Assembly: GCF_000002075.1 (NCBI RefSeq)
Contig: NW_004797352.1
Location: forward strand, 599,117 to 661,753
Source: Aplysia californica
Taxonomy: Eukaryota
Direction: 5' to 3'
DNA length: 62,637 nucleotides
The stretch's first letter is position 1. Each line of letters starts with the position of its first letter. Positions 4,696 to 62,569 of the stretch are shown here, piece after piece. The notes beneath the pieces were generated by a model, which saw only the letters and a list, made by a program, of their open reading frames with translations, did no database searches and was not told where the DNA came from. Position numbers and translations under genes: made by a program.

Positions 4696-4851
4696 CTTGA
4701 GGTGCCTTAGTATTTCCCAAGAACACATCTAGAACATCCTGTCCAAAGATGACCAGCTGCACATTTGTGAGAGACTGTGGCTTTCCTTCTCCAAACTTCT
4801 TTATGGTGCCCAAAATTTGTTCCTTCATTTTGACGTAGGTGTTGGGTCGAG
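4696..4851 (-). CDS. PARP14-like coding exon 17 (end of macrodomain 3: SLTNVQLVIFGQDVLDVF)
   Basis: Acceptor ttccag gives in-frame ARPNTYVKM...; donor G|GTATTA; phase 1-1. Confidence 0.85.
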
Positions 4852-7800
4852 CTGGAATAGAAAACCTTACGAATAAAGATCTGGCCTGAAAGTGGAGTAG
4901 ACAAATATGAAAAAGTAGCATATTCTAAAGAGAAGCATCATTTTGATGCAATAAATAGAGTCATCAGCTTACACCGAAAATCTGTACTGAGAACACACAA
5001 GTTTCACAGATATCATTTATAGTGAAAAATAATAAAGGCTTTCTCCTTCTTTTGAGGAACCCACAAGCTTACATTTTGATGGTCATGTCTCACTATCAAC
5101 AAAGTGTGAAACTGAGGCCCTGTCTGCAGTAAACAATAGATTATGGTGAGAAAAGTTTGGGGCGTACTATAGACCAAATTGTGAAAAGAAAATTTCAGAA
5201 CACACTGAAGATTTTGTAGTCTACTACTCTCACAAAAAAGTTAAGCTTTACATGCCAGTGCCTAAATATGACCATAACAGACAATAACTAGCATAACAAA
5301 ATGTTCAAGAAGTTCTGAAATTTTGTAGTCCCAACAATTTGATGTCAAGACTAGATTTAGACACTAGCATATCACTTATCCTACATTCCTTTCTACATGA
5401 TCGGGGGGGGGGGGGCAAAAAATAATACTGAATGATAAGACTATCAGTAGAAATTTTCAAATATCACGACTACTCCACCTGTAGGGAGACTTAGCTCTTC
5501 AAACTTTGTCTGACTTTGATGAAAGGTTCCAGGAGACCTTGATCATAAAGAAAGTTTAAATCAAGCGACAGATATGAGTGTCCAGTTCTCGAAAAAAATG
5601 CTGTCAAATAATAAGCAAAAAAAGTCTAAAAGTCAGTGGATTCAATTGCTCATCAGGAAATCTAATCACTAGTCACTCGTTACAGAATAATAATAAATAA
5701 TAAATTTCTCGTATGTAATGACAAAATAATGAGAAACAAAAAATCGAAAGTATCTACGCATTCTCTGTTCAGAGAGTTAAGTCAATGACACCAGACCCAT
5801 CCTTTCAAGCTCAAACTCCTATACTGACATACAGGATGTCCCAAACTCGAAGACCGCCAAAATAATTAAAAAATAAAAACTGCTTTAAATACAGCACAGT
5901 CCTTCGGTAGAAACACTGTACAAAGTCTCCCAAAGACTAATGCAAGAGTAGCGGGAATCAGAGTCACTATAAAAATTACCAAACCAGCATCGAAGCAGAA
6001 AAACTCGACAAGAAGGGTCAGAGTCATTATTCGGTGTAATTTGCTCATAAAAGACAGAGCTAAATGTATTTCAGGTGACAATATCAGATAGAAATGTGAA
6101 AACAGACAATATTTTACTAAAGTTAACACTGATGTTTTTTTATATTCCTTTGAAATCATTATAAGATATTCTCCTGTAAATATTCAGAATGATCAAGTAC
6201 TGTTTGTCCTAATCAACTCTAGAAAAAAAAGAAAGTTAGACACTGCTACCACAGGAAATCTTAAAATCCTAAAACATTGCAATGTGCTAAACTACCACAA
6301 GGTACTTTCACTTTAAAGACATTTTTAAACATCTGTTCAGATAACTTTCAATGAACACAGGATATGAGTTTTTACAGCCTCAAGAGAGTTAAGAAGAATT
6401 TTAAATCGGTAAAAGTAATCTAGGTAATTCTTATTGCGGCGGAACTTTATAAAACTTACCTGTTCCAAATGCAGGCATTGACACAGATTTCAAACCAAGT
6501 TTGTCAGCTTCGTTGAGTGCCAGAGCAACACCTTTGTCCCAGCTGTGTGCAAAGTGCTCCATACTCAAGAAGATAATGTGTTTGCATTGTAGACCATGTG
6601 AACCCGTCACAATACACTTAGCAGAAGCCATATTGTTCTCTGACAGAATATATATAAAGATATACACCAGTTAGAAAATAATCACGCTAAGAACCATTGA
6701 AAATGAAGACGGCAAACTGGGATACTTTAGTGTTAACTTTCTCAAAATTCTGATTTATAATTCTATGAGAATTAACGTGTGTTAACTTAGGTTTCCATAA
6801 AAAAATCTTAATACACATGAACCAAGCTCCAAACATAAAACAACCCCTGGATATCCATGATTATTGAAAACTACATATCAACAGGTCAGCTCTACCTCTG
6901 AAAAAGTAAGGAAACAAAAAAACAATCCATGAAGACACAGACTAGTCTATTTTCATGACAGAAACCGCATTGGACACATTCCAATAATATCACAAACCAG
7001 GAAGAAAAGATTATCAGCACACACATGACTTGTAATTCAATTAATCTTTTTTAAGCTTACAGCATTATTTTGTCTTTGACGTAATGCTTGTATATATGTC
7101 TATATTTATGATCTCAAATAACTTGCACAGTTAAAAAATGCAAACTTGATTATGAGGCTGCTTAACACAGGGACAAATAACCTTACAGTTATCAAATTTA
7201 GTCTTCACTGGTACCATCAATTAAGCATCTTTGACAAATTGTAAGATACAGACATCTAGATGATAAATGTCCAATATAAAACTCCATAAGCAGGGCTGCC
7301 CACCCACTACCATGTTTAAGAAATCAACAAAGAAAAAATGACTTATGTGGCTTTAAAAATCGTCCTATAGCCATGGATAGCTTTTTCCCCTGGGGTATAA
7401 AGGACAGGGATTGCAGGTTCAAGAATGAAAGTAATATAAACAAAGGCATGATGAAAGAGGTCTCCGTAAGCTTGTCGTTGCAGAGTTAAGGGAAAAAAAA
7501 AGGGGTGGGGGGGGGGGGGGGATTAAGTTATTGACTGTGAGCTTGAATCTTGTAAAAAAAAAAAAGAAATGATGGCACAACAGAACACATCACAAGCCTA
7601 TGATCCTGATTGTGTGCCATTACGCACCACACTGCATGTCCCCGCTGATAGTTTCGAGTTTCAAAAAATGATCTGGATTTTTAAAAAAAGTTCTCTCATT
7701 AACCTGGGCAGTCACCCATAATGCAAAACAGTAAAAACTTCTTAATACATTGTGAAACTAATGTTTGTCTTAACCCTGGGTTTGGCGTTACTGATATTTT

Positions 7801-10421
7801 TTCTAAGGACAAAGCGGCACTGAGCCACTAGCACTACAAGGGCTCTATGCACAGAGGGTGTTAAAGTTAGACAGCTGCACATGACAGAGTGACGTAGACA
7901 GTTGGAGTTTCAGTATTTTTTTTCCAAAAACCCTAGGAGGATGAAAATGGATTTGGGTATCTGAACGGCAAATCAATTTTCAAAAATTGTAACCAGGGTT
8001 GTTATGATTATATTTTCCTAAGATTGAGAAAAAAATCCTGATAATTCTACTAAATTTGGATTGATGGGCAGCCCTGTATAAGCCATCAGTAACAGAGAAA
8101 AGGACATGAGAAGTCCTACAAAAATCTTCATGAACTACTAGTCATACAATGGGCACCACTTACAACAGTCAAGGTTATGACAGGATTTTATCTATAGTAG
8201 ACTTATTATAAACCTCTGCATCCGATCTCTTATAATGTTCAGTAAAATATTTCTTTTATAGCGGGCACTCCAATAGACATGCTCGGCTATAACAGTGGTC
8301 CAACCGTTGACAAAATCCAATTGAAAGTAAACAGACAGGACAGAAGAAAAAAGCAAATGAAGCAGAACAATATCCAAAGTGGCAAATTGCTCCTCCGCGA
8401 CTCACAGTAGGCCTTTAGAGGTGGATTGTGTACACATTATTATGTGTCATACCATGTGTGCAAGGGATGGAAGGAGAAAGCTGGATGCACTTTGGTGTTG
8501 ATGCAAATCCAGTCAATGACTAAGTGCAACCTTTGTCTGACACAACATTGTTACACAGTCTCCCCCTGAGGTTGCGAGACTTGTAACATGAATAATAGGA
8601 TCAAATGAAAAGTACATCTACTGCATCTATATGAGTGTGTTCCTTTTCCTTTCAGTAGAAACTATTTGATTACGAATAGCTGTAAAGCATACAAGCATGC
8701 TGCAGACTCTTGCAGGGTAAGGATATGCACTAAAAGCAATTACATGTATTACTGTCACCCATGCATCAAACAATATATTATGTCTAGTCAACCCCCATAA
8801 GACTAAGAATAAAATATATTAGAAAAAGGAAGATAAAGATGAGGAGCAGAAAATGTTATCATAGGTAAAGAAATGGGCTATAACTGATAAATCGGTGGTA
8901 TGCCAAGTCAGTGTGTAATAAAAATGATCTCATATGTTAATCATTAGTTAGAGTGTACGTAAACTTGATCCTTATCTTTAAAAAAGATTCGGCTATAACA
9001 GCAAGGTAAAACATCAGTCCCAGCAGTCCTGTTATAGCCAGGGCCCACTGTATTTGTTTCGGGATGTTTATAAATGGAAATTTTGTTTTACTATTAAGCC
9101 ATGGTATAGATCAGATGGGGACCAAAAATATTTAGTCAAGAAATTATCCACTGCATTTTTGACATTTTGTTATACTTCTTGGGTCTACTTGTCTCTTCCT
9201 CAGAAAGTAACAAAGACATACTTTTTGCATTGCATTCGTCCTGGACTGCAGAGCCACATTTCTTTAAAATAGTCTTTGACACAGCACCTGTCGCAAAGAA
9301 AACAAACAAAAAAGTTAAAACTTTATCAATATTGTGTACATACAGTAGCAAAGTCTGCACAGCAATGATTCACAGTCACCTGGGCCCTAAGCTTCAGAAG
9401 AAAAAGAAAAAGGACAATGATAAAGTATCCAGCAACTTTTCAGTTGTCAAAGGCCTCATTCTTCTATCAGCTTTATATCAGACTGAAATATAACGTTTTG
9501 CCTGAATGTCGAAAAAGATTAGGTCGAAAGGGGAAAGAGGAATATATGATCTGATTTACAAGAAATTAGATTAAATGCACTGCAGTGAAAGCAAAATATT
9601 GCCTTTGGTGATTCAGTAAAAGAGGGTCATTCCAACTTCTTGAACTCACAACGCAACAACATAACAAATTTCCAAGACTTTTGGGATACTTATCACCACA
9701 CCAAATTGACCTTTTTGGCCAATCTAAAATAATTAGATCATTTATTCTTATGATTTTGAAGAAAACTCATTTTGAGACGCATGCTATTGTTATATTATAA
9801 AACCAAAATTGATGTGAAAATAAATCCATCAATTGCACAACAAATAACATTTATCAAGTCACTATATATGAAAAAAAAACCCAACTCAATACCTGAGATA
9901 AGCACAAAAAAAAACTGCCTCTTTTTTTTACATTTCATAAATCAGATACCAAAGGAGATGCTCGATAGGTGACAAACATTAATACTTTAAAAAACCCAAA
10001 CAAAATATAAACAAAATGTCACAAAACTAAAATGCATGTTTAACTATGTTTGCACCTTTATTCTTACGATATGAAAAGATTTCAATTCTCAACATTTGAC
10101 AAGAATCAGCATTATACAAAAAAAAGTATCCGTAACAATGATGCTTATTACGTGACATCTTGGAAAATGCATTACTAGATCAAAAATGCAAAATTACAAG
10201 CAATGATATAGTTTTAATATTACACGAATTTAGACTTTACATCAATAACGTGTGAAGTTTAGGCAACTTTACAGCTATTTTGACTAAATTTATAAACTTT
10301 CATTCTTTGGATCTCCAAATTCCTCCATTTAACAACTAGAATTTCTTGTCTTCCTGAAGCTCATAAAACCAATTTATTTCAGCCATAATTCAACCATTTA
10401 CAATAAAAATTATATATGTGT

Positions 10422-10489
<68 letters not shown>

Positions 10490-22948: not shown

Positions 22949-22999
<51 letters not shown>

Positions 23000-43900: not shown

Positions 43901-46900
43901 AAGCATTTCTCATTTGAACCAATAGCTCTCTTCACCACAGGGAGGAATGTCTTGAGTTTATTGGAAACCTCAGCACTCTTCATGACGTTGTCATTCTTGT
44001 AAGTTACTGCCACTCCTGATGTGGTGTCTTCTATGATAGCTTCAATGCCTTTCTCACGTAGAATATGATTCATCCTGGTTTTTAAAAAAGGAGACTGTAA
44101 CAGTTTAGTTTGAGAAGTTTCTAGGTTTGGGACCAAAGACTTGTACCGAGCAGTTTCTTCTAAAATCGACATCTGTACATCTTTTCTTTCATCTTCCTCT
44201 CCTCCGGAGATTAAAACAGAACTTCTTGTAGTATCCATTTCCAAGAGAACATCATGATGCGTCTCTTTAAGAATCTTCATGGAATTTGAACGTTCCAAAA
44301 GGACTAGGTTTGCTTTTCCCCCCACAGGGACAGCAATAACTTCCTGTTGGGGAGCATCAGAAGCTGCTTCTTCAGGATTACTTGCATCTGCCCTTATAGC
44401 ATCAGGATCTTCCAAAGGAAGCTGACTATATTTCCATGCCTTTGAACTAAGACAAGGAAAGTACTCAGTTATTGTCAATTTTGAATCTTCCAGCTGATGT
44501 TCTCTCGACTTAACTGACAGAAGAGCTGAAATATATAAAATATGTTTTCTTTGTAAAACAATTTATCAAAACATTGTTGCTTAATTTCTTTTTGTCACTA
44601 GAACATAAGAACAAATAGTAATACATTTTAATAGTAATTATCAAAAATACTATACAAAAAAAATTAAGTTCACAATGGTTGTGAATCCATCCAGTCGAAT
44701 AAAACATTCAACTGAACCAGTATAATCAAAGAGTTTTTTTACTGGTACTTTTAACTTTACAAGTCAAACCGGTACCTTATGGAATTTTTATTGAACTAAA
44801 TTTCAGTTTCACTATAAAGATTTTTGTTCTCTTTGACCATGAATAAACATATTATTATCGTCGGCTGAGAATTTTAACCATCTAACTCTGATTTCGTAAA
44901 TTTTTCAGGAGAGACAAAAAACTGAATTCAATGGCATTTGTGGGGATTTACTGCCTTTAAATGCACTAGACTAAAATAAATGACTTTACTTTTAAGTATA
45001 TATAAATATCAAAATTGCCGAAATTTTGATATTTTAAGTCCTAAACCAGAGTTATACGGATAGACCACCCAGTTTTGGATTTCTAAATGTCCAAGTGCCG
45101 AAGAACGAAATGTTCGTTTAGAATTCTCCAACCTGGTAGGGACGTCGTGCGCTTCACTACATCTAACTCGGTCATTATATACCACGGAAGGAAATTGTAC
45201 GGTTACAATTCTCACAGTCGAGTGATGATGGCTTGCTCTCTGCGTTGTAGATCTAGTTGTTTTGTTAATGTTACCAAAAAACTCGAAATGATTAGATATG
45301 CAGTCAATCCAATAGTAAGCCGACTAAAAAATATCTTATTCGTTTTACATAGTACTAATGTACCGGTGCTTCTATCTAAAATCTAACGATAATACTTTTA
45401 GAACACAAACTTAACGTCACACTTTTTTTCACATAATATTAGTAAGGCAATACAGCTACAATTCGATCCACAATTCTGAAAGAAATTGTGAGAAGGGTTG
45501 GTNNNNNNNNNNNNNNNNNNNNNNNNNNNNNNNNNNNNNNNNNNNNNNNNNNNNNNNNNNNNNNNNNNNNNNNNNNNNNNNNNNNNNNNNNNNNNNNNNN
45601 NNNNNNNNNNNNNNNNNNNNNNNNNNNNNNNNNNNNNNNNNNNNNNNNNNNNNNNNNNNNNNNNNNNNNNNNNNNNNNNNNNNNNNNNNNNNNNNNNNNN
45701 NNNNNNNNNNNNNNNNNNNNNNNNNNNNNNNNNNNNNNNNNNNNNNNNNNNNNNNNNNNNNNNNNNNNNNNNNNNNNNNNNNNNNNNNNNNNNNNNNNNN
45801 NNNNAGGGAGAGAGAAAAACAGATAAAGTAGAGTGAAGAAAGACAAGAGAGACCTTCAATAATGTAAAAAGAAAGCAAGAACAAACGTCTTGGTCTATCT
45901 ATAGACATTATATTGGAAATTTTATTTGAGATTAAGTTAAAAAAAAAAATCCAGAAAAACGTAGCCAGAAGTGCGACAGAAAACTACATACCGTCTACCA
46001 GTACAAGAAATTAAAATACTTCTTACTAAAAACATGATTTAACTCAGTTGGAAGACTCCAGAAGAAAAATATGACTTATATATAAAGCTCAACTAAACCT
46101 CATACAAAATATCCCAACCCAATTTATGGCACAAATCCCAAATTTCTCATAAAAAGTCAGTAAGATGAGGTGTGCCATAGCAGCATCCAGTGTCAACAAC
46201 CATAAATTCATCTATTGTCCAAGCATCATTAAAAGGCTTTGGAACGCACTACCCACTAAAGCTAAAGCTCTGGCTAGCTAAATATAAAAATAAAATACAT
46301 AAACCAAAGCAGAATGCACTGCATATTAAATTAGATTCAGTAGAAATTTTTAACATACGCACTGGTGACGTACTAAATTCTAAGTGTTTCTGCTTACTGG
46401 AAGAAGATGAAGTATTTATAAAAATAGTCTCAATCCAGCATTTACAAAAAAATAAAGTATTCTTTGCAAGTCACATTGTAAAATTTTGCATTTAAGTCAT
46501 AAGAACATCGTGATACATCAAACTGATAATTTGGTGGCAAAGGTCAAGATGTGAATACATGCAGTTTCACTTGTGACACAAAACTGTGGCGGTGGACAAA
46601 CAATTTGGCCTAGTGGGGTTGTTGTTGTTGTTGTTTTCAAATCCCTTTAGCTGCGAGCATTTTGCTCTTAGCAGAGCAATGCCTCTCTCAAATAACCACA
46701 TGTCCTTGTCATCTGGTCAGCGCCAGAGTAGAGCAGGCTTTGTAAGTGTGTAGGTGTGTGAAGGAGCCTGCGTCGAAGAACTGCCAATTTTGGGCAGTGA
46801 AGGAGAAGATGTTCAACGGTCTCCTCGTGGTAGTCACAGTGTCTGCAATGGGGTTCCCACATGGGGTTAATTCTATTTATGTGCTTGTTGGTGTGTAAGT

Positions 46901-49900: not shown

Positions 49901-52900
49901 AGTCAGAATTCTCGGCGGACGATATATACATAGTGGGAATATTAAAATTTGTTTCTTCCTTATTTACTTTCATTACTGCTTCAACATAATGGAATGGACA
50001 GATTTTAAGTTGGGTGAAGCCCTTTGAAAGACTGAAAATAGAGAAAGATGGAAAAAAGTGGTAGCCCAATCATCCTGAGAGCCACAGCGGTCATCTAGAC
50101 TAAGGGATGAATTTCAATTTTAAAAAATTTCGCTGCTTCAGATAAGTCCTGCTGAACAAAACAAAACAAAATCTTATTCTCTCTCTCTCTTCCAACAGCA
50201 CTCCTGCCAACCAGAAATGAACAACTTGTCTTACTTGATGTGTTCTGAAACTCCACAACTGCAGATGAAAAATCTCTTCTTTGTATTTGCTGTACAAGCC
50301 CTCCTCCACTTCTCCCAGGGTTTTCAAAGTAACGCTCCAAGGATGCGTCCGTTATATCTTCCTTGAGGCCTGATACAAGCACACTGCTGGTCAGAAGGAC
50401 AGGAGCCACTACAACTGGTGTATCCAAAAACAATTCCCTGCACTGCCACAGTAAAGTGCTTAAATCTGAGAATGAAAGCACAAAGGAAAGATTATTCAAA
50501 AGGAAGGGAACTAGTTCCTTCTGGAGCATCAAAACCTATCAAGGATACAATTATAATATATATACATTTCCGCAGTGGAAGTCCACGTCTTGTTTTCTCT
50601 ATACTGTCCCATCTTACAAGTAAAATGAGACACAGAATAAAATTCTTCTTACTGAAAGCCATACTTTGAGGGACAATAAGACCAGTTGCTTAAAACAAGT
50701 TTTATTTGTTAGAGTATTAGAAGTCAGCACGTCTACTGATTTGATGCTGCATCATCGTTCGGGGTTTTTTTTCTCCTTGTTTTTGTCATTAATCAGAAAT
50801 ATTTGCTTGCCTGTATTACAACTGTGTCTTCATATGCAATATCTTAATTCTCTTTTTTACATTTTGGAGGATTTCTATTGCTGAAAATGCTAACATTTAC
50901 ATAATAAAATATTTTAAATAGAATTTGGTGCGACAAAGCAGGAATGGGCTTACGACTTGTAAGAGTTCATAAATTTAAAGTTTGGCCAAACTTTTGTGAT
51001 TCTCTGCTGAGGGTAAGATGGAGTGGGGAGGGAGTGGGGTAGGGGTCTCCTTTGCACAGGAAAGGCAGTGAATAGGAGGTAGCTCTAGCCATGTGAGAAA
51101 GAATAAACTTTTGTTTAAGTTTGAGTAAAGACACAATAACAGCCTTTCTAAGCAGAGAAGAATCAACAGAAGGAAAAAAAAGAAGCAGGATCTACCATTG
51201 GCACCTTCCAACCAGCCATGAATTTAAAACTGAACACCTTACATAAATGTGTCATGATGTGGTGAAATCTGGTGCTTGTCAACTTTTGGGCATATATATA
51301 TATATGTGTTGCGACGTGGTGGAGTCAGGCGTTTGTCAATTTATGGGCATATTGGGTTATTTGTATCATCTTTAAGCCTGTTCATTTGCCTTGCTTTTGG
51401 TGAAAAAAGCACCCACATATCTTTGATGCAAGTTGAGATATTGGCGATTGAAGGAGATGGGGTAGCCTGGTTTCAGAGGTGAAATTGGCGAGAAAATGGC
51501 CTCCAAAGTTTCGTAATTTCCCATAGCTTGAGAGTCCTAGGAAACTGAAAATTGACATTTTGTGTGCCTTTAATAAATATTTTTCAGTAAAATCCACACA
51601 GAAATACATTTTTTTAAAATGGATATAAAAGGCGTTCAGCCCCCTCCAAAAAAAGAAAAAAAAAGAAAATTTGAAAAAAATTGCTCAACAGTCAGAAAAA
51701 TGCCAATTTCTTTAATTTCATTTTTTTGACGAGTGCCTGATTTCCCCACGATGTCTCACATATAGTTATTGGTATGCTCTTTAAGTTTGTTTGTTTTTCT
51801 TGCAAAAAATATCCATCTATCTTGAATAGAATTTGAGATATTTGCAATTGAATGAGGTGGCAGTAGCCTGACGTCAGAGGTAAACTTAGTGAAAAAATGA
51901 CCACCACACTTTGGTGAATTCCAAAGCTTGAGGGTCTTTGGAAACGACAGATCAACATTTTTGCGCCTTTTATCAATGTTTTTCAGTAAAAATGCACACA
52001 GAAATGTTTTTAAATAGACATAAAAGAAGTTGTACAAAGAAAAAAAGTTGATAAAAATTGCCCAACATGCGGAAAAATGTCAGGCTTTTTTTTTTCTATT
52101 TCATTATTTTGAGAAGTGCTTGATTTCACCATGATGCCTCACAAATCTCATTGTAGAAGTCCTTTAAGTCCTAAGTCCACTATCTGTCGTTGCTGTGCTT
52201 GCAAAATGGACCATCCCATTATACCTACTTTTGCCATGCGTGTTTCTTTTGTGACTGCCACCACATTTTTGTTTTGGTTTTGCCAACACATATAGTACCA
52301 CCAAACAAAATATAAGGCTAGTTGCATTTTGGAACAACTCTGAGTAATGTCATTTTGCTAACGCAGTGACAATGTGCAATATAATCCAATGAGCATGCAG
52401 CCACAGCTGAAATACCACCTCCAAGCATTAAAGACATTTAAAAAAAAGAGCTTCCATGTTTCGAAGTACTTGTACTAATTAAGACCTATGATGACATGCC
52501 ACTTTCTAAAGAATCATAAGTCAACAACTCATAATTATACAGCCAACACTTCAATGAATTTGGACAATTGCAATCATGAAATGTTGAAAATGTTGTACTA
52601 AAAATTTAACTAAGCAACATTTGTAAACAAAGCCATCAGAAGATTCTATTAAACCAGAACAAGAAGATAATTAAATTTGGACTTTAAAAAAAAATCTCTT
52701 GAATTATAACTGCAAACAAAAATAAACCAGTTCTCAATCACAAAAAAGTTAATGACGTAAAAAGTCAAAAAGTAAAATATACATAACTAGAAATGTATTC
52801 TCTGTCTAATTTTTTTTTCCCGATTTTGTTCATTGGGCCACTAACTTTAATCTAACCCTCCTAGTGTCACTATCAAATAGCCTGGGGTGTCAGGGGAAAC

Positions 52901-55900
52901 TAAACAATTTCATTATTCATGTGTTGCTATGTGCTGGAATCAGGCACTCATCAATTTTGGGCATATGGAGTTATTGGTATAATCCTAAAGCCTGTTCATT
53001 TTCCTTGATTTTGATGAAAAAAAGCTCATTTATCTTGAATAAAAGTCGAGATATTTGCGATTGAAGGAGGTGGGGGTGGTCTTGTGTCAGAGGTAAATTT
53101 AGCGAGAAGATGGCTGCCAAAGTATCTACGGCTGTAGTAGTCTTGAAAACTGAAAAATTACATTTTTTGGTGCCTTCGATCAACATTCATCAGCAAAATT
53201 CAAGCAGGAAAGTGTTTTAAAACTTATAGGTTATTGAGTCCAAAATAAAAAAATTCAATAAAAATGTCTTTCTTTGATTTTATTATTTTGATTAGCGCCT
53301 GATTCCACCACGATGCCTCACATATTATGTGGGAAAGTGCTTTAAGAACAGGCAAACCAAGCAAGTAAAGGCCATAAATAAACCTAAACATTAATTTAAA
53401 AAAAAGTAGAATGTAAATAGTAAATAGGAAGTACAGCTCATGTGTGAAGGATTGAAATGTTAAATTTGGCGATATATAAAAAACAGAATAAACGAACTAA
53501 TAGCAATTCAAATTATGGCTGATTAAATTGTCTGCCACACCTTAGAACAAAACTGACAGTCGATTTAAGAAGCTGTCAACACTTAAGTTGTTCTCGCATT
53601 CGATCCCGACATTGGGGATTGCCTTCTAAGTGACACAACTTCCTGGGCCTTCGGCATATTGTGGTTTCAAATAATTTTTTGAAAAAGACTTGCATCAATA
53701 ACAAATTTATTAAAATATTTCAAACCTGTGTACGTTGTCATGTTCAAACCAATGATGATGGAATTAACTTCCTCCTGCTGGATCTGCTCTTTGACTGAAA
53801 ATCCAGTAGCATTTTCAATCTGATACTTGATGTACTCCATGATTTTGCCATTAGAAAAATCTTGTCCATGCAGTGACATCAAATTGTAATGAAATAAATA
53901 TTCCTCTTCTTTTGCCATGCACACTGAAACAATGTTGTCTGTGACTTTATGCTCTTTCTTGCACATGTCACTGGCTCCTGAAAAAAAAAGAAAGATTAGT
54001 TGATGAAAGTACTGTACACTGTTGGTGTATCTAAATGACTAAACACTTTCTTTCTGTTTGTCTAGTACATGAAGGCAGTGTTTTACTACGTCAAATTTCA
54101 AGAAGTATACTGAGACAACATTACCGAGTCATTTCCTAAAATCACAACATTAATGACTTACTGAAGAAAAAACAACCATCCAAATAAAAATGAGTAATTA
54201 CACGGCAATAAAAGGGAAGAAAGAAGAAACCCAAACAAACACCTCCCTCACCTACCCAAAGGAATAATAAAATACTGAAAGCCTAAACAAATACATTTGA
54301 ACCAATCAGAGTACACATACTTGCATTATTGTTACTCTCTGAAACTATTGTTACTTCTACCTGGTTTAGTTGCCATTAATTACTGTAATAATAATCATCT
54401 CTATTTCTTAATTTCATCAACACTTCTTTGAGTAGAGCAAAAAGGAAGGTATGCAAATAGACTTGTGTCATCAAAATACAGCATTAAAACTATGAGTAGG
54501 TCATTACATAATATGTCATACTAGCTGGGCACCCGTTCGATGAACGGACTCAAAAGAATCAATCGCCAAGTCATTGTCGAATCAGTGCGCAGTGCTAGTG
54601 AACGAAGCCTCACTTTTTTACAATGGTGCCTTAGGAGACAGACTTTCCCAAGATTAGATCAGAACGAAACTAATGAAAAACCGAAAATTAAATTACAGAG
54701 ACTTCAGACTTTAAATGATTCTGAACCACTGTTAATTTTTTCAAATTCGAAAGTTAAGTGATTTGGAAGTTTTAGGTGACCAAAGTGATGAACTTTCACA
54801 AATATAATATACAGATACTGCAAGTAAAATTTTCAAGTTTACAGTCTTTAGTCAGACACGATATTTTATCGCTCAGCCAGTTGAGTGGCAATCAATAACT
54901 CAGTGGTTAAAGCACTGGATACGTTACACGTTACATGGATCTATAGTACACTCCATAACTGTCATCTTGTACAAAACTGATCAGATGCAAATAATCAAAA
55001 TACCAAAAAGCTCAAGTTCGGCTTGTTACAAAAGACACACCTTTTCATTTGATTAACTGGTAGGCCTACAAAGCAAAAAAGGACAGCCGATGGAGCAGGG
55101 AACATTTGTCTGGGAAATCCTCGAGGATGAAAACAGGCTATATATACATTTCAATACTACTGGCAGGGGTAGAAAACTAAAACCAGGGTTTCCACTCACA
55201 AAGAAGAAAACATTTCCTACTTCCTCCCCCCCCCCCCCCCCTCCCGTTTTCTTCTGGCTTTGTATCCATTTTAAAGGGGAATAATTTTTAAAAGATGACA
55301 AAGCGAGGGAAAAGAAAAAAAGAGAAATTAAAAATATGCAAGGTAAAAATCCTATGGCAATGGATTATCCCTCTCAATGAGATGTCAAAAACAGGAGTTG
55401 TAGGATGAATGAACGTAATGAAAACAAAGACGTAATGTAAGAAGTCTCTTCGTACTTGTCGTTTTATCAAATTATGAAAAAAAGGACAGTGGGTTGGTGG
55501 GTGTGGGGGGGATTGTATTCATTGGCTGTTGGCTTGACACTTGCAAAAACAAAAGAAATTGACAGCATGTGTCACAAACCTTAGATCCTGGTTGTGCATC
55601 AGAACACACCATGCTCTGCACTGCAGCTGATTGTTTCAAGTTTTAAACTTGATCTGCTTTTTTCTTAACATTCTCTCGTTGGCCAAGGCTGTCACTGTTA
55701 TCTAATTGCAAAAGCACTGGAATTTTGTAACACCTTGTCAAACAAATGTTGACCTTAGTCTTGGCTTTGCCGCAGCAAATATTTTTCTCAGGACAAAGTG
55801 GCACAGAGCGACTACAAGGGCTCTGCACAGAAAGTGTCAATGTAATACTGTTCAAGTTAGACAGCTGCATGTGACGTAGTGACCTAGACTGTTGGGGTCT

Positions 55901-56393
55901 GATTGCTTTTCTTCCTTATAGATATGCTGGGAAGACGGGGATTGGTCAAAGTAGCCAAACGGCAGGTAAAGCTTTGAAAGTATCAAATCAAGGGTGTTAA
56001 GATCATATTTTTATAAATTCTAAAAAAAAATTAATAATTTTGCCAAATTCACAATTCCTTTTTTCAGTTTTCCCAGTTGAGTTGAAACCCTTTAAAACTA
56101 AACACATTTATTAACAAGTATTATAATATCAAAATAAATTTCCCTTCATCATTCATGCTTATATTTTTGTTACCAACATACTGACCTTTACTTTCTTCAA
56201 ACTCAATATAAACACACTTATGAAGACCATCCAGAAGCATTGTGTCTTCCTTAATATTTCCAGTCTTGATAGCTGGGGCATCAAAGTAGTTGATGTAAAA
56301 ATCTTTGGCCTTTTTAGCATCCTGTACTTGTACTTTGATAACTGTTCTAGGACATAAGGACACATTTTTAGGGTCTCCTGTAAAGTCGGCCAT
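4696..56393 (-). CDS. PARP14: PARP14-like macro-PARP (RRM-like repeats, KH-like region, 3 macrodomains); 17 coding exons, 3622 nt, at least 1207 aa; 3' end lies outside the window
   Basis: Manually spliced exons with GT-AG ends and matching phases. PARP14-type RRM motif VLVSGL...LERYFENPGRSGGG...AVVEF. Three macrodomains with motifs GNI/GQI/GDI, D(A/V)(L/I)V and S(I/V)xxxAxG(T/V). Strong Kozak GACATGG. Catalytic domain not seen, so orthology is by architecture only. Confidence 0.85.
6460..6639 (-). CDS. PARP14-like coding exon 16 (macrodomain 3: LQCKHIIF...SVSMPAFGT)
   Basis: Acceptor tgtcag; donor G|GTAAGT; 180 nt, phase 1-1. Confidence 0.92.
7291..8076. mobile_element. hAT-like non-autonomous element; related internal sequence at about 55600-56000
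   Basis: 12-bp TIR CAGGGCTGCCCA / TGGGCAGCCCTG; TSD degraded; internal segment 7805-7900 resembles 55790-55890. Confidence 0.6.
9222..9287 (-). CDS. PARP14-like coding exon 15 (macrodomain 3: GAVSKTILKKCGSAVQDEC)
   Basis: Acceptor gacag; donor A|GTATGT; 66 nt, phase 1-1. Confidence 0.9.
10418..10486. repeat. (GT)n microsatellite
   Basis: Directly visible. Confidence 0.95.
10850..11088. mobile_element. piggyBac-type MITE
   Basis: TTAA TSD on both sides; TIR CCCTATCC(A/G)TAC; removing it restores the host sequence aacctttaagatgatacc. Confidence 0.9.
11169..11951. mobile_element. Tc1/pogo-type MITE
   Basis: TA flanks; TIR CACTCGAACCTG / CAGGTTTGACTG; subterminal ggccac repeats. Confidence 0.75.
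12427..12662. mobile_element. Sola1-like MITE family B
   Basis: TIR of about 33 bp (gtgaggcgtgctgacaaaatgagttacttctc); perfect TSD ATTT. Confidence 0.85.
13313..13680 (+). mobile_element. Sola1-like MITE family A, copy 3 (right end truncated)
   Basis: Similar to the other family A copies. Confidence 0.7.
13816..14367. mobile_element. Sola1-like MITE family C
   Basis: TIR of about 31 bp (gtgtgtgcgcctagagaaaggtaccaaaagt); flanks atat / aata. Confidence 0.75.
14797..14919 (-). CDS. PARP14-like coding exon 14 (macrodomain 3: VKIQKGDITTQSCDVIV)
   Basis: Acceptor ttgcag; donor G|GTGAGA; canonical GDIT...DVIV motif; phase 1-1. Confidence 0.9.
15901..15958 (-). CDS. PARP14-like coding exon 13 (linker AFQRASSGHGLAASPTPRQ)
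   Basis: Strong polypyrimidine tract plus CAG; donor G|GTTCGT; phase 0-1 bridges the neighbouring exons. Confidence 0.8.
16441..16556 (-). CDS. PARP14-like coding exon 12 (end of macrodomain 2: SSLQSVVLVIHE)
   Basis: Acceptor cttcag; donor CAG|GTAAAG; phase 1-0. Confidence 0.9.
16930..17330 (-). mobile_element. Decayed RTE-like LINE fragment
   Basis: Minus-strand YGYET* resembles the RTE motif LYGxETW; boundaries approximate. Confidence 0.4.
19230..19332 (-). CDS. PARP14-like coding exon 11 (macrodomain 2: SISLCALGTGGLRYP)
   Basis: Acceptor tgacag; donor G|GTTGGT; phase 0-1; macrodomain ALGTGxLxYP motif. Confidence 0.9.
20500..20665 (-). mobile_element. tRNA-derived SINE remnant; similar heads near 2790-2850, 15710-15770 and 35025-35100
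   Basis: Minus-strand B-box GGTTCGAATCC with an A-box-like GTGGCCTAGAG upstream; no intact cloverleaf. Confidence 0.6.
22939..22996. repeat. (CT)n microsatellite
   Basis: Directly visible. Confidence 0.9.
23827..24277 (-). mobile_element. Sola1-like MITE family A, copy 4
   Basis: Reverse copy; flanks aaat / agat. Confidence 0.75.
24443..24557 (-). CDS. PARP14-like coding exon 10 (macrodomain 2: GDFAVSSSGNLGNKSLFHAC)
   Basis: Acceptor ttacag; donor CAG|GTGAGG; phase 2-0. Confidence 0.9.
25801..26057 (+). repeat. 5' LTR
   Basis: Direct repeat of 28779-29036. Confidence 0.95.
26247..26897 (+). CDS. Retrotransposon Gag (prematurely stopped; CCHC knuckle remnant CTRCAYDSH...DCPA just downstream)
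   Basis: Gag motif QEPNESIDAYVAELRKLGRGCNF...MIRDRIL. Confidence 0.85.
   Translation: MEGTKSKFHAQIQPPQKLNISEESALQSNLRKFSRAWKNYEIASNLIKKSKQFRCAVLLTVIIGEDAMDKFDGFKFSSKEEQDDINTVLKKFEEFCMGTTHEAFKSYRFHVRVQEPNESIDAYVAELRKLGRGCNFEAFEDRMIRDRILVGCKTDHVREKLLEDPKLDLKKAIDIARPYEESQVKLNEMKELAVARVMPKNRKKSFPEEKKEAVFK
27005..28421 (+). pseudogene. Ty3/gypsy pol remnant: RNase H plus integrase (stop and frameshifts)
   Basis: AQIEKEALA, ETDHK, RIQRF, ADSLSR; integrase VDYYSR, TDNGTQY, SANGEAERAV. Confidence 0.9.
28779..29036 (+). repeat. 3' LTR
   Basis: Direct repeat of 25801-26057, preceded by a polypurine tract. Confidence 0.95.
29212..29324 (-). CDS. PARP14-like coding exon 9 (macrodomain 2: SDVIVTTVDKSLDL...GGQAVQDEL)
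   Basis: Acceptor tttcag; donor AG|GTTTCC; phase 0-2. Confidence 0.9.
31263..31381 (-). CDS. PARP14-like coding exon 8 (linker plus start of macrodomain 2: IDVAVKSGQILDEK)
   Basis: Acceptor ccctag; donor AAG|GTGGGC; phase 1-0. Confidence 0.85.
31567..32231. mobile_element. TTAA-flanked (piggyBac-type) non-autonomous element
   Basis: TTAA TSD; TIR CTCTTTCCTGAC / GTCAAGAAAGAG (11 of 12 match). Confidence 0.8.
33091..33279 (-). CDS. PARP14-like coding exon 7 (end of macrodomain 1: GFFNFNATIFG...VEHLYVCD)
   Basis: Acceptor aaacag; donor G|GTGATT; 189 nt, phase 1-1, open. Confidence 0.8.
35105..36700. mobile_element. hAT-type non-autonomous element inserted at a tRNA-SINE head
   Basis: Perfect 8-bp TSD GCCACCAC; TIR CAGTGGCGG / CCGCCCCTG. 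Confidence 0.85.
36983..39364 (-). mobile_element. Sola1-like MITE family A, copy 5, split by insertions
   Basis: Family A ends at 36983 and 39364; family body resumes at about 37560-37738; flanks aaat / atat. Confidence 0.6.
37739..39332. mobile_element. Non-autonomous DNA element with CAC...GTG ends and GC-rich subterminal inverted repeats
   Basis: cggggtcacgggg (about 37818) / ccccgtgaccccg (about 39262); cccgccgg / ccggcggg; ttttagtt / aactaaaa. Confidence 0.6.
39681..39920 (-). CDS. PARP14-like coding exon 6 (macrodomain 1: VIRTSGGEL...SIAVPAVGVD)
   Basis: Acceptor tttgcag; donor G|GTAAAA; 240 nt, phase 1-1; absent from the ORF track, translated by hand. Confidence 0.9.
40345..40694 (-). 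CDS. PARP14-like coding exon 5 (start of macrodomain 1: KITFAQGNI...DALVNP)
   Basis: Acceptor ccccag; donor G|GTTTGA; phase 2-1. Confidence 0.9.
41788..42893. mobile_element. hAT-type MITE with an internal duplicated (GT)n block
   Basis: TIR TAGGGTTGG / CCAACCCTG; 8-bp TSD ttcaccgt / ttcaccat. Confidence 0.8.
43051..43245. other. Assembly gap (N run)
   Basis: 195 N. Confidence 1.
43523..44525 (-). CDS. PARP14-like coding exon 4 (end of RRM plus KH-like region)
   Basis: 1003-nt open exon containing the 319-aa ORF; acceptor tttcag; donor AG|GTGAGA; phase 1-2. Confidence 0.9.
45503..45803. other. Assembly gap (N run)
   Basis: 301 N. Confidence 1.
45960..46411 (+). mobile_element. Decayed LINE 3' end (CR1/Jockey-like) with a GAA-type tail
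   Basis: LSWKT and WNALP remnants typical of LINE ORF2 C-termini; gaagaagatgaag tail. Confidence 0.45.
46620..47437 (-). mobile_element. 5'-truncated non-LTR retrotransposon of the RNase-H-bearing I group, with a (CAA)n tail
   Basis: 14-bp TSD TGGCCTAGTGGGGT at 46606-46619 and 47438-47451. Open 256-aa frame with RNase H (FSDSMS, QWVPGHSGVPGNGTAD) and a C-terminal CRHC...ETVEHLLLHC knuckle. Confidence 0.9.
47442..49100 (-). pseudogene. Sola1-type DDD transposase pseudogene
   Basis: Motifs across frames: FRPRKDRCDLC, CITMDLQSVL, KLCVHNFTVY, LYSDGCGYQNRN, EKGHTQMEVDCAHSTIE and C-terminal VPCDYHSFYDNLPH*; multiple frameshifts. Confidence 0.75.
49975..50110 (+). mobile_element. RTE-like LINE 3' terminal remnant
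   Basis: NIMEWT...ENRERWKKVV resembles an RTE ORF C-terminus. Confidence 0.45.
50235..50465 (-). CDS. PARP14-like coding exon 3 (RRM: LERYFENPGRSGGG)
   Basis: Acceptor ctcag; donor A|GTAAGA; 231 nt, phase 1-1; hallmark PARP14/PARP10-type RRM motif. Confidence 0.9.
51249..52142 (+). mobile_element. Sola1-like MITE family A, copy 6 (host of copy 7)
   Basis: Perfect TSD AAAT. Confidence 0.85.
51306..51759 (+). mobile_element. Sola1-like MITE family A, copy 7, nested in copy 6
   Basis: Perfect TSD ATAT; inserted in the ATAT site of the host's gggcatat motif. Confidence 0.85.
52921..53321 (+). mobile_element. Sola1-like MITE family A, copy 8
   Basis: Same TIRs and body; flanks tcat / atat. Confidence 0.8.
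53726..53977 (-). CDS. PARP14-like coding exon 2 (GASDMCKKEHKV...NMTTYT)
   Basis: Polypyrimidine tract plus CAG acceptor; donor CAG|GTTTGA; 252 nt, phase 1-1, open frame. Confidence 0.8.
56186..56393 (-). CDS. PARP14-like coding exon 1 (ATG; RRM-like, MADFTGDPKN...YIEFEESK)
   Basis: ATG at 56393-56391; donor AAG|GTCAGT; ends phase 1; likely acceptor ttgcacag puts the exon start at 56442. Confidence 0.8.
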
Positions 56394-56990
56394 GTCTCTA
56401 CTGCCTCTCCTCTACACCTTGAATAACTCTGTTAAATTCCAGCTGTGCAATAGGTAATATATGAGACTGACACACTATGGTTTACTTTTATGCAGTTGTA
56501 TACAAATACAAAAAATAGTCATCATTTTTCTTAGATGCCTTTAAAAAGACCCAAAAATGAACCATTGGCAGCACTTGTTTGATCAGCCACTCAAGCCAGG
56601 ATAATTCTTTCTGTTGAGTTCTGAAAAAAATGGGGGGAAAAATATTGAAATTAGAGTGGGTTAGGGTGAGGTAGGAAATGGGGGCACTTTTTCAGACTCT
56701 GCTAAACTGAGTCAACCACCAAGTGTCTACAGCTATGGTTAGACAATGGTATGAATTCTGCCCTGACGGTACACATTTCTGCAATTCGAGCTTAAAACCA
56801 GACACTCCTATAGCAATCAGGATCACATGTAAAGACATGGGGCAAGTTTTATGAGTGACGAGCTCAGGATGAATGAAACAAAAAGGAGAGACGTGAAAGA
56901 CTGATTTGAAACTATAGACATGGTGAGACGAGGTCAGTCCAGTTCTATGACTGCCAAAGGGGAAACAGTCTTTTTAACTGACCTTTACAT

Positions 56991-58479: not shown

Positions 58480-58575
58480 TCAAACTGAAATTTCTTTAAA
58501 AAAATTTACGAAGTGACTACTTCTCTGAATGCTCGAGAAAATAAACTTGATCTCTATTTCTCCGGAAGGTTTCCG
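58480..58575. promoter_or_regulatory. Candidate proximal cluster of IRF-, STAT- and kB-like sites
   Basis: AAACTGAAA 58482-58490; TTCTCTGAA 58521-58529; TTCTCCGGAA 58558-58567; GGAAGGTTTCC 58564-58574; donor GAG|GTAATC at 58153 downstream on the minus strand. Confidence 0.35.
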
Positions 58576-59931: not shown

Positions 59932-60289
59932 CGAAGAGAACTGGCCTTTTTTTAGAACCCCTCCCCCCTTTTCCAAACCTGTCTCCAAAACTACCTCCTT
60001 CTTCATCATGCCCTTGTCAAATAAATAAAAGTACAGAATGGTTAGTAGAAATTAGCAATCATACTCACTTGGAATACCACAACCAGAAAAACACGAGAAA
60101 AGTAAGTAGATCAAAGGTTAGGCGATGAGGAAGTGAAAACAAGGCCACAGATAGGTTCATCCAAGTCAGCGTACTACTAGATCTAACTCCTAGATCTAGG
60201 GCCTAAACAATTCATCATAGCCTACGTTTGTTTCTCTGTTCTAATCAGCTTTCATTGATGATTAGTGAGAATCATCAATCATAGTGATT

Positions 60290-60669: not shown

Positions 60670-61436
60670 TTTACCCATAATTTGATATTTTACAGTTAGA
60701 TTTGAAATTGTCTTGAAAATAATTGATTTGCGACAGTTTTAGTGGCTTTATGTGTGATCTGCAGCAAACAGTACTGCAGTTTGACCCCTGAAATAGTGCA
60801 TCTGTGTGCGGGAGTGAAAGTAAAAATTTACCGTAAAAATATGTAATGGTTCTGAACTGTGCACAGGTATCATATAATGCGGCCACCTCTATTCTCACCC
60901 GGGGTGAGAATAGTGCAGGCGGGTCTTGTGGCTATTCTCACCCGGTGCGCGCGTCAACAAATTTTGCGTTCACCCTAAACCACAGAATTCTACACTGTGA
61001 TAAGAGAAAAATTGTAGAATTCTGTGCTGTGAACAAACGTTCCATTACAACTGTACTTGTAGCCTACTAAAAGCGTACAATTTTGTCTGTGGGCAGGGGA
61101 GAGAGAGAGAGTGAGAGAGAGAACAAAACAAAATGGCGACCCGCGTAGTTCGGCTCGATTCGAAAAGTTAAATAGCCGTAGCATCTTTGTAGACAACCAA
61201 ATTAATTTACTTTTATGTTTTAACATCATTTTTGAACTTTGTTTTGGTCAATTTGATCGTCCACACCGATAGACAGTATTCAGAAAGAGACAGAGAGAGA
61301 GAGAAGAGGGGAGGAGTAGATCTTGCGAGAACTTCCGGGCGGGTGAGAATAGCCACTTTCATATAATGCCGTAACGAAGAGAACAGTAGTCGGATGATGT
61401 TGAAATCTTCTAATGTCAAAGTAAAAGTTGCACTTC

Positions 61437-61448
61437 GAAATTGAAACT
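61437..61448 (+). promoter_or_regulatory. Consensus ISRE (GAAATTGAAACT)
   Basis: Exact match to GAAANNGAAACT. Confidence 0.45.
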
Positions 61449-61682
61449 GAGACACGCATTAGCTTAGCCTGGCTTAGGCTTAGAAATTCTAATCAAGAGT
61501 CAAAGGAAGTTGCGAGAGAAAATCCAAATCTATATTATCTAGATCTAGATCTAGTCTAGATCTAGATCTAGACTCTAGATCATCTAGATCCTCTAAAAAG
61601 GAAGTAAAACTAAATAATATATATATAGGTTAGATCCTAGACCTGGTTGTAACTTCATTTTGATCAAGGCAACGACACTTAC

Positions 61683-61750
61683 CATTCTAAAACAGCTCGT
61701 TACCTGAGAGCCTCCCACAACAACGCCCCAGGAACACGAACAGGAGGGCG
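61683..61750 (-). other. Candidate non-coding first exon of the PARP14-like gene
   Basis: Consensus donor ATG|GTAAGT at 61683; alternative donor CAG|GTAACG nearby; immediately downstream of IRF and GAS motifs; 5' end approximate. Confidence 0.45.
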
Positions 61751-61752
61751 GA

Positions 61753-61788
61753 ACTTTCAGTTTTCCCAAATATATTTGGTTCTTGGAA
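61753..61788 (-). promoter_or_regulatory. Candidate promoter with adjacent IRF-E/ISRE and GAS
   Basis: GGGAAAACTGAAAGT (minus strand, 61753-61767) and TTCTTGGAA (61780-61788). Confidence 0.5.
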
Positions 61789-62537
61789 ACCCACCGGAAG
61801 TTAATGGGTTGGACCAAAGATTGGACTATGGGAAGTCTGATGATCAATCTGATACAACCAATGATAGTACATAACAGCTAGGCCTAAGTTATTAAAAGGG
61901 CTCGGACTTTAAACCCCAAAGTTATTAAAATATTACCTCCCAAAAAATAAAAAGCAAAGAAATGAAAGAATGGTAGGGAAAGAGTGGTCTAGAATGTTCT
62001 ATTTATGATAGCTTTGGACGACAAGTGAAAAAAATGGAGCCCAGCCAAGGAGTTTAGAACTTACTTTTAATCTCCTTGAGCCCAGCTTTTTTAATGCGAG
62101 TTTTCGTAGGTCTATTATTTGGTAACTTCCGTTCGTACAAAGGGCAGGTTGCGCTCTCCACAATAATAATAATGATAATCTTACTACACAGAATTCTACA
62201 CTTAGTGTAGAATTCTGTTCTACACTTAGTGTAGAATTCTGTGTCTTACTACTAATGGCGAGCTAAGGCCAAATTTTGCGAACAGTATATTCTCAAAAAC
62301 TACCGAATGAAAAAATATGAAACTTTGTCAGTACCCATAACTTGAAACGTAGTGTTGCACTATTGTATTTTCATTACGATCAAATTTGCGAGAAGAAAGC
62401 CCAGTTTAAGTTAAATTCAGTCCTTTTGTAGCGATCGCTATCATTTGCTTCGACATTGTATATTCACTGCGGAGTGCCGACTGCGCCAAATGGTATTATG
62501 TGTTCAGTACTCTCTGGTTGTGCATAAAGTAGTTTAC

Positions 62538-62559
62538 GGGAATTCCCGGTTTCGGTCTC
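62538..62559. promoter_or_regulatory. Palindromic NF-kB site abutting an ISRE-like element
   Basis: GGGAATTCCC at 62538-62547, followed by GGTTTCGGTCTC. Confidence 0.45.
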
Positions 62560-62569
62560 ACACCTTTAG

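Follow-up and report, generated by a model that had tools for sequence, protein, structure and literature searches.

The question raised by this locus is whether PARP14 in the sea hare, Aplysia californica, stands under an interferon-style promoter. An earlier note on this 62.6-kb stretch of DNA (the window) described a 17-exon gene with RRM, KH-like and three macrodomains, called it a PARP14-like macro-PARP, and placed it under IRF, STAT and NF-kB sites. The exons are those of Aplysia californica PARP14 (LOC101848576; XP_005094510.1), one of 17 Aplysia PARPs, whose residues 1-1207 are identical to the translation of 17 coding exons (1207/1207). These exons lie on the minus strand from 56393 to 4696, with AG/GT at every boundary, and an 18th exon, first and non-coding, ends at 61683 (Table 1). 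For the last coding exon, acceptors 4885 and 4880 both give stops and 4851 is correct. The window contains the 5' three quarters of an already annotated gene, which runs on past the window start beyond coding exon 17. The macro-PARP label agrees with the annotation, but the catalytic domain it implies is not in the window: a tblastn search there did not find the WWE/PARP part (residues 1208-1596; best E 0.77), and the WWE and PARP catalytic domains are in the database protein, encoded by exons beyond the window. PARP14 itself is not new, being annotated in Aplysia and already known in molluscs and cnidarians, and interferon-like IRF/STAT programmes have already been described in oyster and Nematostella; the proposal has less novelty than the earlier note suggests.

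Table 1. Features of the Aplysia PARP14 locus, in window coordinates
Feature	Position	Strand	Remarks
kB palindrome abutting ISRE-like word	62538..62559	.	distal candidate, ~780 bases upstream
GAAATGAAAG	61959..61968	+	background level, 4 exact copies in window
Word taken to be an ETS-type motif, beside GAS	61794..61801	+	sequence only
GAS/STAT palindrome TTC-TTG-GAA	61780..61788	.	14 bases from ISRE, 21-29 upstream of 61759
ISRE/IRF element AC-TTT-CAG-TTT-TC	61753..61765	+	overlaps deepest 5' end
GC box	61746-61751		motif match in the letters only
Non-coding first exon	61683..61759	-	minimum extent; donor GTAAGT at 61682; joint 56620-61683 (CT..AC)
Second ISRE AG-TTT-CAA-TTT-C	61437..61448	-	intron 1, candidate helper site
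EICE-like word	60129..60138	+	intron 1, background level
Exon 2, remaining 5' UTR and first coding part	56186..56620	-	ATG 56393, aa 1-69
Coding exon 2	53726..53977	-	aa 70-153; spliced to exon 2 in X12, X3 and the raw reads of X24
Coding exon 3	50235..50465	-	aa 154-230, bulk of RRM; PF23085 E 2.8e-8
Coding exon 4	43523..44525	-	aa 231-564, RRM end and four predicted KH-like units
Coding exons 5-7	40694-40345, 39920-39681, 33279-33091	-	aa 565-824, macrodomain 1; exon 7 (33279-33091) absent from isoform X2 by skipping
Coding exons 8-10	31381-31263, 29324-29212, 24557-24443	-	macrodomain 2 (exons 8-13, aa 825-1032)
Coding exons 11-13	19332-19230, 16556-16441, 15958-15901	-	macrodomain 2 (exons 8-13, aa 825-1032)
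Coding exons 14-17	14919-14797, 9287-9222, 6639-6460, 4851-4696	-	aa 1033-1207, macrodomain 3

The splice donor that had been pointed out below the ISRE/GAS pair is used. The joint 61683 to 56620 is present in contigs of three of the four runs (X12, X19 and X3), with first-exon pieces of 77, 38 and 56 bases, respectively; the runs listed are not on record as RNA, and the spliced joints show these contigs to be RNA-derived. Contig 5' ends lie at 61720, 61738 and 61759, the deepest being 61759, and represent a minimum extent, as contigs cannot reveal the true transcription start. Depth in bin 61701-62000 is the amount expected from the exon pieces alone in X3 (4.32) and X19 (0.30), whereas X12 has 8.21 versus 4.9 from its exon piece, an excess without explanation. 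The shallow raw reads of X24 contained no entry for the first joint and no position where many molecules begin. An alternative first exon at a donor-like site near 60068, below the word at 60129, was rejected, having no depth in any of the four runs; likewise, no exon was seen at 60129 itself (depth 0-0.07 in bin 59901-60200, four of four runs). The apparent 5' end of the transcript, placed from RNA independently of motif positions, falls at the ISRE/GAS pair.

Every motif quoted in the earlier note is present at its position. Not all are upstream, however: the words at 60129 and 61437 fall within intron 1, on the downstream side of the deepest 5' end and ~1620 and ~310 bases away from it, and the 61753 ISRE overlaps that end. 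Whichever of the four pattern/gap settings is used, no second ISRE+GAS pair occurs in the 62.6 kb. Between 0.10 and 1.31 such pairs are expected per window, or about 0.0003-0.004 for a pre-set 200 bp, and the frequency was 0.0023 when the local 1 kb was shuffled 3000 times; these probabilities, with all backgrounds drawn from the window itself, are optimistic because shuffled sequence contains only about half as many A/T-run motifs as the real one (9 vs 4.0; 44 vs 22.5) and the ISRE pattern was relaxed to admit the 61753 site. CCAAT-type words near 61820 and 61860, the GC box and the word at 61794, which we take to be an ETS-type motif, fit a core promoter. Two features of ISRE+GAS composites, close spacing and a position in the promoter or 5' UTR, are found here. 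The letters of the ISRE are nearly equal to those of human APOL6 (AC-TTT-CAG-TTT-CC) and SP110 (AC-TTT-CAC-TTT-TC), and those of the GAS are identical to the human CASP1 GAS (Table S4 of PMC10287828). The two candidate sites are likely bound by IRF and the single Aplysia STAT.

It is conceivable, but quite unlikely, that IRF acts without STAT, with the ISREs at 61753 and 61437 driving basal and induced expression, the GAS a chance neighbor, and no cytokine-JAK-STAT relay. The GAS by itself is common (28 in the window, and at least one in 39% of local 1-kb shuffles), and two ISREs in the local 1 kb are rare (0.3% of shuffles). At human PARP14 the ISRE outweighs the GAS (PMC10287828), and no interferon-type ligand is described for Aplysia in the accessible part of PMC9334734. 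However, the GAS is a perfect palindrome, the 14-base linker is typical of functional human composites (PMC10287828), and Aplysia STAT belongs to the same co-expression module as PARP14, with membership 0.90 (PMC8195618).

The remaining motifs offer less. Compared with the rest of the window, the region 59.6-62.6 kb is not enriched for half-sites (5/51, p 0.10), tandem GAAA (2/29, p 0.42), GAS (1/28, p 0.75) or EICE (1/5, p 0.22), and ISREs give 2/8 (p 0.055). EICE-like words number 5 in the window versus 4.3 expected. The 61437 ISRE is the only strict match in the window to the consensus given in PMC10287828, with 0.41 expected per window. Self-BLAST, a comparison confined to the window, placed none of the five motif sites in repeats common to the rest of it. 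Overall motif density is at background, and the ISRE+GAS pair is unique in the window. This pair is the one feature that clearly exceeds background, and the 61437 ISRE does so more weakly.

The proposal of a three-factor cluster over 2.4 kb is not supported, as most of the scattered sites are background and the NF-kB site is 780 bases off, behind repeat-like DNA (~62186-62450). A requirement for NF-kB alongside IRF and STAT, with the kB and ISRE-like element at 62538-62559 serving as an enhancer, is unlikely. A perfect kB palindrome does directly adjoin an ISRE-like word, by a pattern defined post hoc after the word was noticed, and NF-kB signaling is enriched in the PARP14 module (PMC8195618). 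However, kB-consensus sites in the window are no more frequent than chance predicts (2.9-3.3 expected, 4 observed; about 0.05 per kb), and the element is 78 bases from the window edge and may belong to something outside the window. Such three-factor control would add to, and is compatible with, the explanation preferred here, that PARP14 starts at the ISRE+GAS pair.

Expression data connect the gene to antiviral programs. The transcript of this protein, XM_005094453.2, belongs to the greenyellow module (membership 0.77, p 2.7e-15), in which oyster antiviral genes are over-represented (45/224, p 4.4e-6), and it co-varies with IRF1, IRF8, STAT, RIG-I, ZNFX1, DTX3L and PARP12 (PMC8195618). It is listed as 'NS' in both ageing differential-expression columns of the same study. 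XM_013080346.1, matched to the same predicted protein by accession offset, is in another module (membership 0.23, p 0.051; PMC8195618). The oyster gene CGI_10016209 changes by +1.58 log2 after poly(I:C) (Lafont 2020 set, tabulated in PMC8195618); it is a BLAST match, the Aplysia gene falls in a gastropod clade, and one-to-one orthology is not implied. No challenge experiment with dsRNA or virus on Aplysia PARP14 was found in the literature searched. It is likely that Aplysia PARP14 is turned on within the known mollusc antiviral response, and by motifs and co-expression it looks like an interferon-stimulated-gene-like member of that program. The core of the interferon-like circuit proposed in the earlier note is thus supported by the used donor, the 5' end at the pair, the rarity of the pair, module membership and the oyster match.

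The module was derived from ageing neurons and ganglia, and its authors raise hemocyte involvement (PMC8195618). The motifs could be incidental or related to inflammation or ageing, with the ETS, GC-box and CCAAT words around the start, and perhaps NF-kB, running the promoter, and co-variation reflecting infiltrating immune cells. Knocking down IRF or STAT singly in Nematostella left cGAMP induction unreduced, and NF-kB had a role (PMC8713801). This alternative is very unlikely for Aplysia, given that the sole ISRE+GAS pair in the 62.6 kb sits at an independently located 5' end and closely resembles validated human sites in sequence (PMC10287828).

The predicted protein fits a PARP14-type macroPARP, with an RRM, predicted KH units, three macrodomains, and WWE and PARP domains. 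In isoform X2, Pfam recognizes one RRM (PF23085, aa 179-258, E 8e-17) and three tandem Macro stretches, which our own macrodomain profile places at 632-791, 845-1015 and 1037-1199. Residues 1-175 gave no Pfam RRM match, though they are similar to gastropod relatives, and no KH family was matched by Pfam in isoform X2. The KH-like domains of the earlier note are retained by predicted fold only. Modelled with AlphaFold (pLDDT 87.5), exon 4 has four tandem beta-alpha-alpha-beta-beta-alpha units, of which units 1 and 4 have mostly type I KH domains as best fold matches (VIA-align, Z 9.2-9.6), including vigilin KH4 (Z 9.6, rmsd 2.5, 69 aligned); the fold comparison mainly covered these two units. 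Foldseek returned secretins and one KH entry for the exon 4 model, with TM <=0.24. Four KH-like units are predicted between the RRM and the macrodomains. In an alignment of the PARP domain with human PARP14/15, the catalytic His and Tyr are conserved and Met stands opposite Leu, giving H1488-Y1520-M1579 where H-Y-E would stand. A triad of His, Tyr and a hydrophobic residue, rather than Glu, is of the mono-ART type, and Aplysia PARP14 is a putative mono-ART.

Macrodomain 1 is predicted to be hydrolase-dead. An active macrodomain 1 is defined by Asn/Ser and Gly flanking loop 1 and by a hydrophobic and an aromatic residue in loop 2. Loop 2 of Aplysia has Phe-Phe, compatible with the active signature, and loop 1 has Asp in the Asn column, Phe-Ser for Gly-Gly and a 4-residue insert, whereas human PARP14 has the loop 1 Asn and Gly-Gly. 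A macrodomain 1 without hydrolase residues is seen across a clade of seven snail and sea-hare proteins, which includes those of Aplysia, Physella, Lymnaea, Bulinus and Biomphalaria. A full HMMER scan gave 2066 macrodomain homologues at E 0.001, 150 of the 2066 being listed, and a word-based search gave only 4 proteins. Macrodomain 1 hydrolase residues have been termed broadly conserved in spiralians, and the PARP14s of bat, cow and polar bear also lost the loop 1/loop 2 catalytic signature (PMC10221186). The mammalian losses are backed by activity tests (PMC10221186), whereas the gastropod loss, predicted from sequence, would be an invertebrate addition to these recurrent losses. No paper on gastropod PARP14 macrodomains was found in a literature search that left most subscription journals outside.

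Taken together, it is probable that Aplysia PARP14 starts at the ISRE+GAS pair, is induced in an interferon-like program, and is a writer of mono-ADP-ribose whose macrodomains are readers and not erasers. Viral RNA would induce PARP14 within the mollusc program, through IRF and the single STAT binding the paired sites at the first exon; NF-kB input is possible, not required. PARP14 would then add mono-ADP-ribose to its targets, and its macrodomains would read this mark but not erase it, the hydrolase activity of macrodomain 1 being predicted as lost. With neither STING nor MAVS identified among Aplysia orthologs (PMC9334734), cGAMP is a doubtful trigger. More tentatively, the ISRE+GAS switch may predate the mollusc-vertebrate split or have been rebuilt in parallel, with gastropod PARP14 a writer and reader whose eraser was lost.

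If this is true, an interferon-less animal that has a single STAT, and in which neither STING nor MAVS was detected, induces PARP14 via IRF and STAT together at one start site. The element would be a ready reporter in the search for the missing cytokine and adaptor, for instance in abyssovirus infection of Aplysia neurons. Aplysia is used as a model animal and is naturally infected by a neurotropic nidovirus. Mollusc interferon-like programs have been accepted from expression data; ISRE reporters in human cells respond to oyster IRFs, tests made on mammalian reporters and not on native promoters (accessible part of PMC5557890). The native 40-base ISRE+GAS element would directly test whether IRF-STAT co-regulation predates interferon, within the limits of one gene and predicted sites in a known kind of system. 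No published description of such a composite at a mollusc or other invertebrate PARP14 promoter, that of Aplysia included, was found in a search that left most subscription journals and much shellfish immunology outside.

Among invertebrates, promoters of poly(I:C)-induced Nematostella genes are enriched for STAT, IRF, NF-kB and ETS motifs; the enrichment is one in bulk, no individual composite element is described in the accessible part, and 'PARP' is absent from the main text (PMC8476169). The oyster response includes RLR, MAVS, STING, TBK1, IRF and CgIFNLP, whereas Aplysia has 7 IRFs, 1 JAK and 1 STAT and neither STING nor MAVS was found (accessible part of PMC9334734). ISGF3 as such cannot form in Aplysia because there is one STAT only. 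Human PARP14 has the same order of RRM, KH-like units, three macrodomains, WWE and mono-ART domain, although Pfam recognizes three RRM families and seven of KH in a vertebrate-type representative versus one and none in Aplysia. Human PARP14, DTX3L, PARP9 and APOL6 are listed with ISRE+GAS composites whose linkers span 0-19 bases, and human PARP14 and APOL6 no longer respond to interferon once both sites are mutated (PMC10287828). The Aplysia and human PARP14 elements are unalignable, with a linker of 14 bases versus 0 or overlapping, and their likeness is no proof of common descent of the sites. The composites of human APOL6, TRIM69, UBE2L6 and PARP9/DTX3L have ISRE-GAS gaps of 14-19 bases and ISRE letters near-identical to those of Aplysia; they are backed by ChIP and some mutagenesis, whereas the Aplysia element is known from sequence, position and co-expression alone. 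Along transcription, the Aplysia pair has the same order as the human PARP14 composite, which is in the '-' (GAS-ISRE) orientation (PMC10287828).

PARP14 of Aplysia is an already annotated gene, and the programme to which it belongs is of a known kind. The largest exon (44523-43522) is 100% identical to one protein, named at source Aplysia californica PARP14 isoform X2, whose cluster comprises isoforms X1 (XP_005094510.1, 1596 aa), X2 and X3. The 17 coding exons chosen from the sequence encode residues 1-1207 of isoform X1 (1207/1207 identical, zero stops), confirming the 17-exon gene of the earlier note; the WWE and PARP portion of X1 is absent from the window (tblastn best E 0.77). Pfam matches in the protein comprise one RRM, three macrodomain stretches, WWE and PARP, with zero matches to KH families. 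The RRM and macrodomains proposed previously are thus recovered by Pfam, whereas the proposed KH-like region is recovered by predicted fold: a structure model of exon 4 (30-sequence alignment, pLDDT 87.5) contains four repeated units, and type I KH domains fill most top rows of the fold comparison for units 1 and 4. In an alignment with PARP15, both catalytic residues of the PARP domain, His and Tyr, are retained, and Met stands in place of Leu. A His-Tyr triad with a hydrophobic third position, here Met, is of the mono-ADP-ribosylating type, and these residues point to that activity for Aplysia PARP14.

Repeats, mobile-element remnants and assembly gaps in the window
Feature	Position	Strand	Remarks
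LINE-like reverse transcriptase fragments	96-1268	-	PF00078 E 1.5e-11; intron after the window's last exon
Broken LTR-retrotransposon-like remnant	26181-28421	+	intronic; gag-like frame, fragmented pol, integrase core PF00665 E 3e-11
Assembly gaps (two)	43051-43245, 45503-45804		both intronic; coding model complete across both
Intronic element pieces	46668-47989	-	RNase H + zf-RVT frame (non-LTR retrotransposon-like), DUF7869 frame
MITE-like element, intron 1	60277-60682		77-base inverted arms, 90% complementary
Further repeats	~60740-61360, ~62186-62450		high depth from other transcripts

The first macrodomain was compared with a hydrolase signature defined, and termed broadly conserved among spiralians, in PMC10221186. 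In an alignment of one macrodomain per protein (19 hand-picked from ~170 proteins), bivalve, brachiopod-cluster and vertebrate-type domains have Gly-Gly in 11/11, Asn in 10/11 and the loop 2 aromatic in 10/11, whereas Aplysia macrodomain 1 has Asp replacing Asn and Phe-Ser replacing Gly-Gly. When the span of all three macrodomains is placed in a tree (16 rows; P0012, P0013 and P0009 excluded), Aplysia groups with Physella, Lymnaea, two Bulinus, one Biomphalaria and one further protein at 100/100, and 7/7 proteins of this clade fail at least one hydrolase criterion. Since the tree is midpoint-rooted and built on a small sample, and since first macrodomains are degenerate in some other matches too, the claim is limited to a predicted clade-wide loss of macrodomain 1 hydrolase activity in these gastropods. 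RefSeq isoform X2 skips exon 33091-33279 (minus strand), removing 63 residues that include macrodomain 1 loop 2. No paper on gastropod PARP14 macrodomains was found in the open-access literature searched. Among P0010, P0022 and P0023, the locus tags of the two Bulinus paralogs (Btru_004352, Btru_004357) are close in number and their contigs equal in length, which suggests a tandem cluster, and the Biomphalaria protein has 9 RRM_PARP14_3 stretches.

Four of the 24 listed runs were aligned to window positions 53601-62600. A joint from 61683 to 56620 with CT..AC ends occurs in contigs of three of the four runs, so the splice donor pointed out previously below the ISRE/GAS pair is used in RNA and the transcript has a non-coding first exon; the raw-read run is too shallow to reveal this joint or a start. 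First-exon pieces in contigs of three runs extend to 61759, 61738 and 61720. As contigs give a lower bound only, the transcript start lies at 61759 or further upstream, probably not far from there. Depth in bin 61701-62000 is wholly accounted for by first-exon pieces in runs X3 and X19; in run X12 it is 8.21, more than the 4.9 that the exon piece accounts for. Depth does not exceed 0-0.07 in any of the four runs in the bin with the EICE-like word at 60129. The 5' UTR spans at least 304 bases and contains four upstream ATGs (window 61683-61685 and 56394-56620, minus strand), one being the final three bases of exon 1 (61683-61685), with frames of 10, 25, 16 and 15 codons; translational control is possible. 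A second exact copy of the promoter ISRE 13-base core lies at 56062-56074 (minus strand), ~110 bases past the start of the intron that follows the first coding exon, and lacks the last two consensus letters. Isoform X3 begins at Met74, in the exon after this copy; an alternative start may therefore lie nearby.

Every motif listed in the earlier note was found, but the set over 59.6-62.6 kb is not enriched relative to other parts of the window (p 0.055-0.75, five patterns). One feature stands out, the ISRE (61753-61765) and GAS (61780-61788), 14 bases apart; with each of four settings, no other pair of this kind occurs in the window. Expected pairs number 0.10-1.31 per window, or 0.0003-0.004 per pre-set 200 bases (100 local dinucleotide shuffles), and when the 1 kb around it is shuffled 3000 times, a fraction of 0.0023 reproduces the pair, probabilities that are optimistic in that shuffles under-count A/T-run motifs ~twofold and the ISRE pattern was relaxed to admit the site. 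The 5' end at which the pair lies was located from RNA, independently of the motifs. It is very unlikely that the motifs are incidental. A strict match to the published consensus occurs just once in the window (0.41 expected), at the second ISRE (61437). An added requirement for NF-kB, compatible with IRF and STAT acting at the pair, is doubtful: the kB palindrome at 62538, adjoined by an ISRE-like word, is suggestive, but kB words by themselves are at chance (4 observed versus 2.9-3.3 expected) and the site lies 780 bases away, near the window edge.

Published co-expression data place transcript XM_005094453.2 in the greenyellow module (membership 0.77, p 2.7e-15), in which oyster antiviral genes are over-represented and whose top members include ZNFX1, DTX3L, SAMD9, STAT, IRF1, IRF8, PARP12 and RIG-I (PMC8195618). 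Supplementary file 7 of that study pairs XP_005094510 with oyster CGI_10016209 (+1.58 log2 after poly(I:C)) and gives the Aplysia gene as NS in the two ageing tests. A second transcript is a weak member of another module (0.23), and the entry called PARP14 in the main tables refers to a separate transcript, XM_005107110.2. An Aplysia inventory includes seven IRFs, one JAK, one STAT and 17 PARPs, and lists no ortholog of STING or MAVS (PMC9334734). Oyster IRFs switch on ISRE reporters in human cells (PMC5557890), a cGAS/STING-TBK1-IRF axis and an interferon-like protein are described in oyster (PMC8218723), and poly(I:C)-induced promoters of Nematostella are enriched in STAT, IRF, NF-kB and ETS motifs (PMC8476169). 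In Nematostella, single IRF or STAT knockdown left cGAMP induction unaffected (PMC8713801), which argues against assuming an IRF-STAT circuit.

The observations of the earlier note are confirmed in part, and its interferon-style interpretation is partly supported. It is fairly likely that viral RNA induces PARP14 through an IRF at the ISRE and STAT at the GAS. RIG-I-like receptors would sense viral RNA and signal through some adaptor, an IRF would bind the start-site ISRE, and the one Aplysia STAT, JAK-activated downstream of some cytokine, would bind the GAS. PARP14 would then rise together with DTX3L and other effectors, and its targets would be mono-ADP-ribosylated.

The Aplysia and human lineages diverged at least 600 million years ago. 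Composite sites of the two cannot be aligned across this divergence, so the Aplysia composite may reflect either shared ancestry or parallel gain. No description of it was found in the open-access literature searched. Human PARP14 is itself a composite gene with a GAS adjoining an ISRE; mutation of both sites fully abolishes the interferon response, and the ISRE is dominant (PMC10287828). Control of the Aplysia promoter by an IRF only is unlikely, and the ISRE and GAS together form a well-placed candidate composite. Linkers of 14-19 bases occur in human APOL6, UBE2L6 and TRIM69, the Aplysia ISRE is one letter apart from that of APOL6, and the Aplysia GAS is identical in letters to that of CASP1 (PMC10287828 Table S4).
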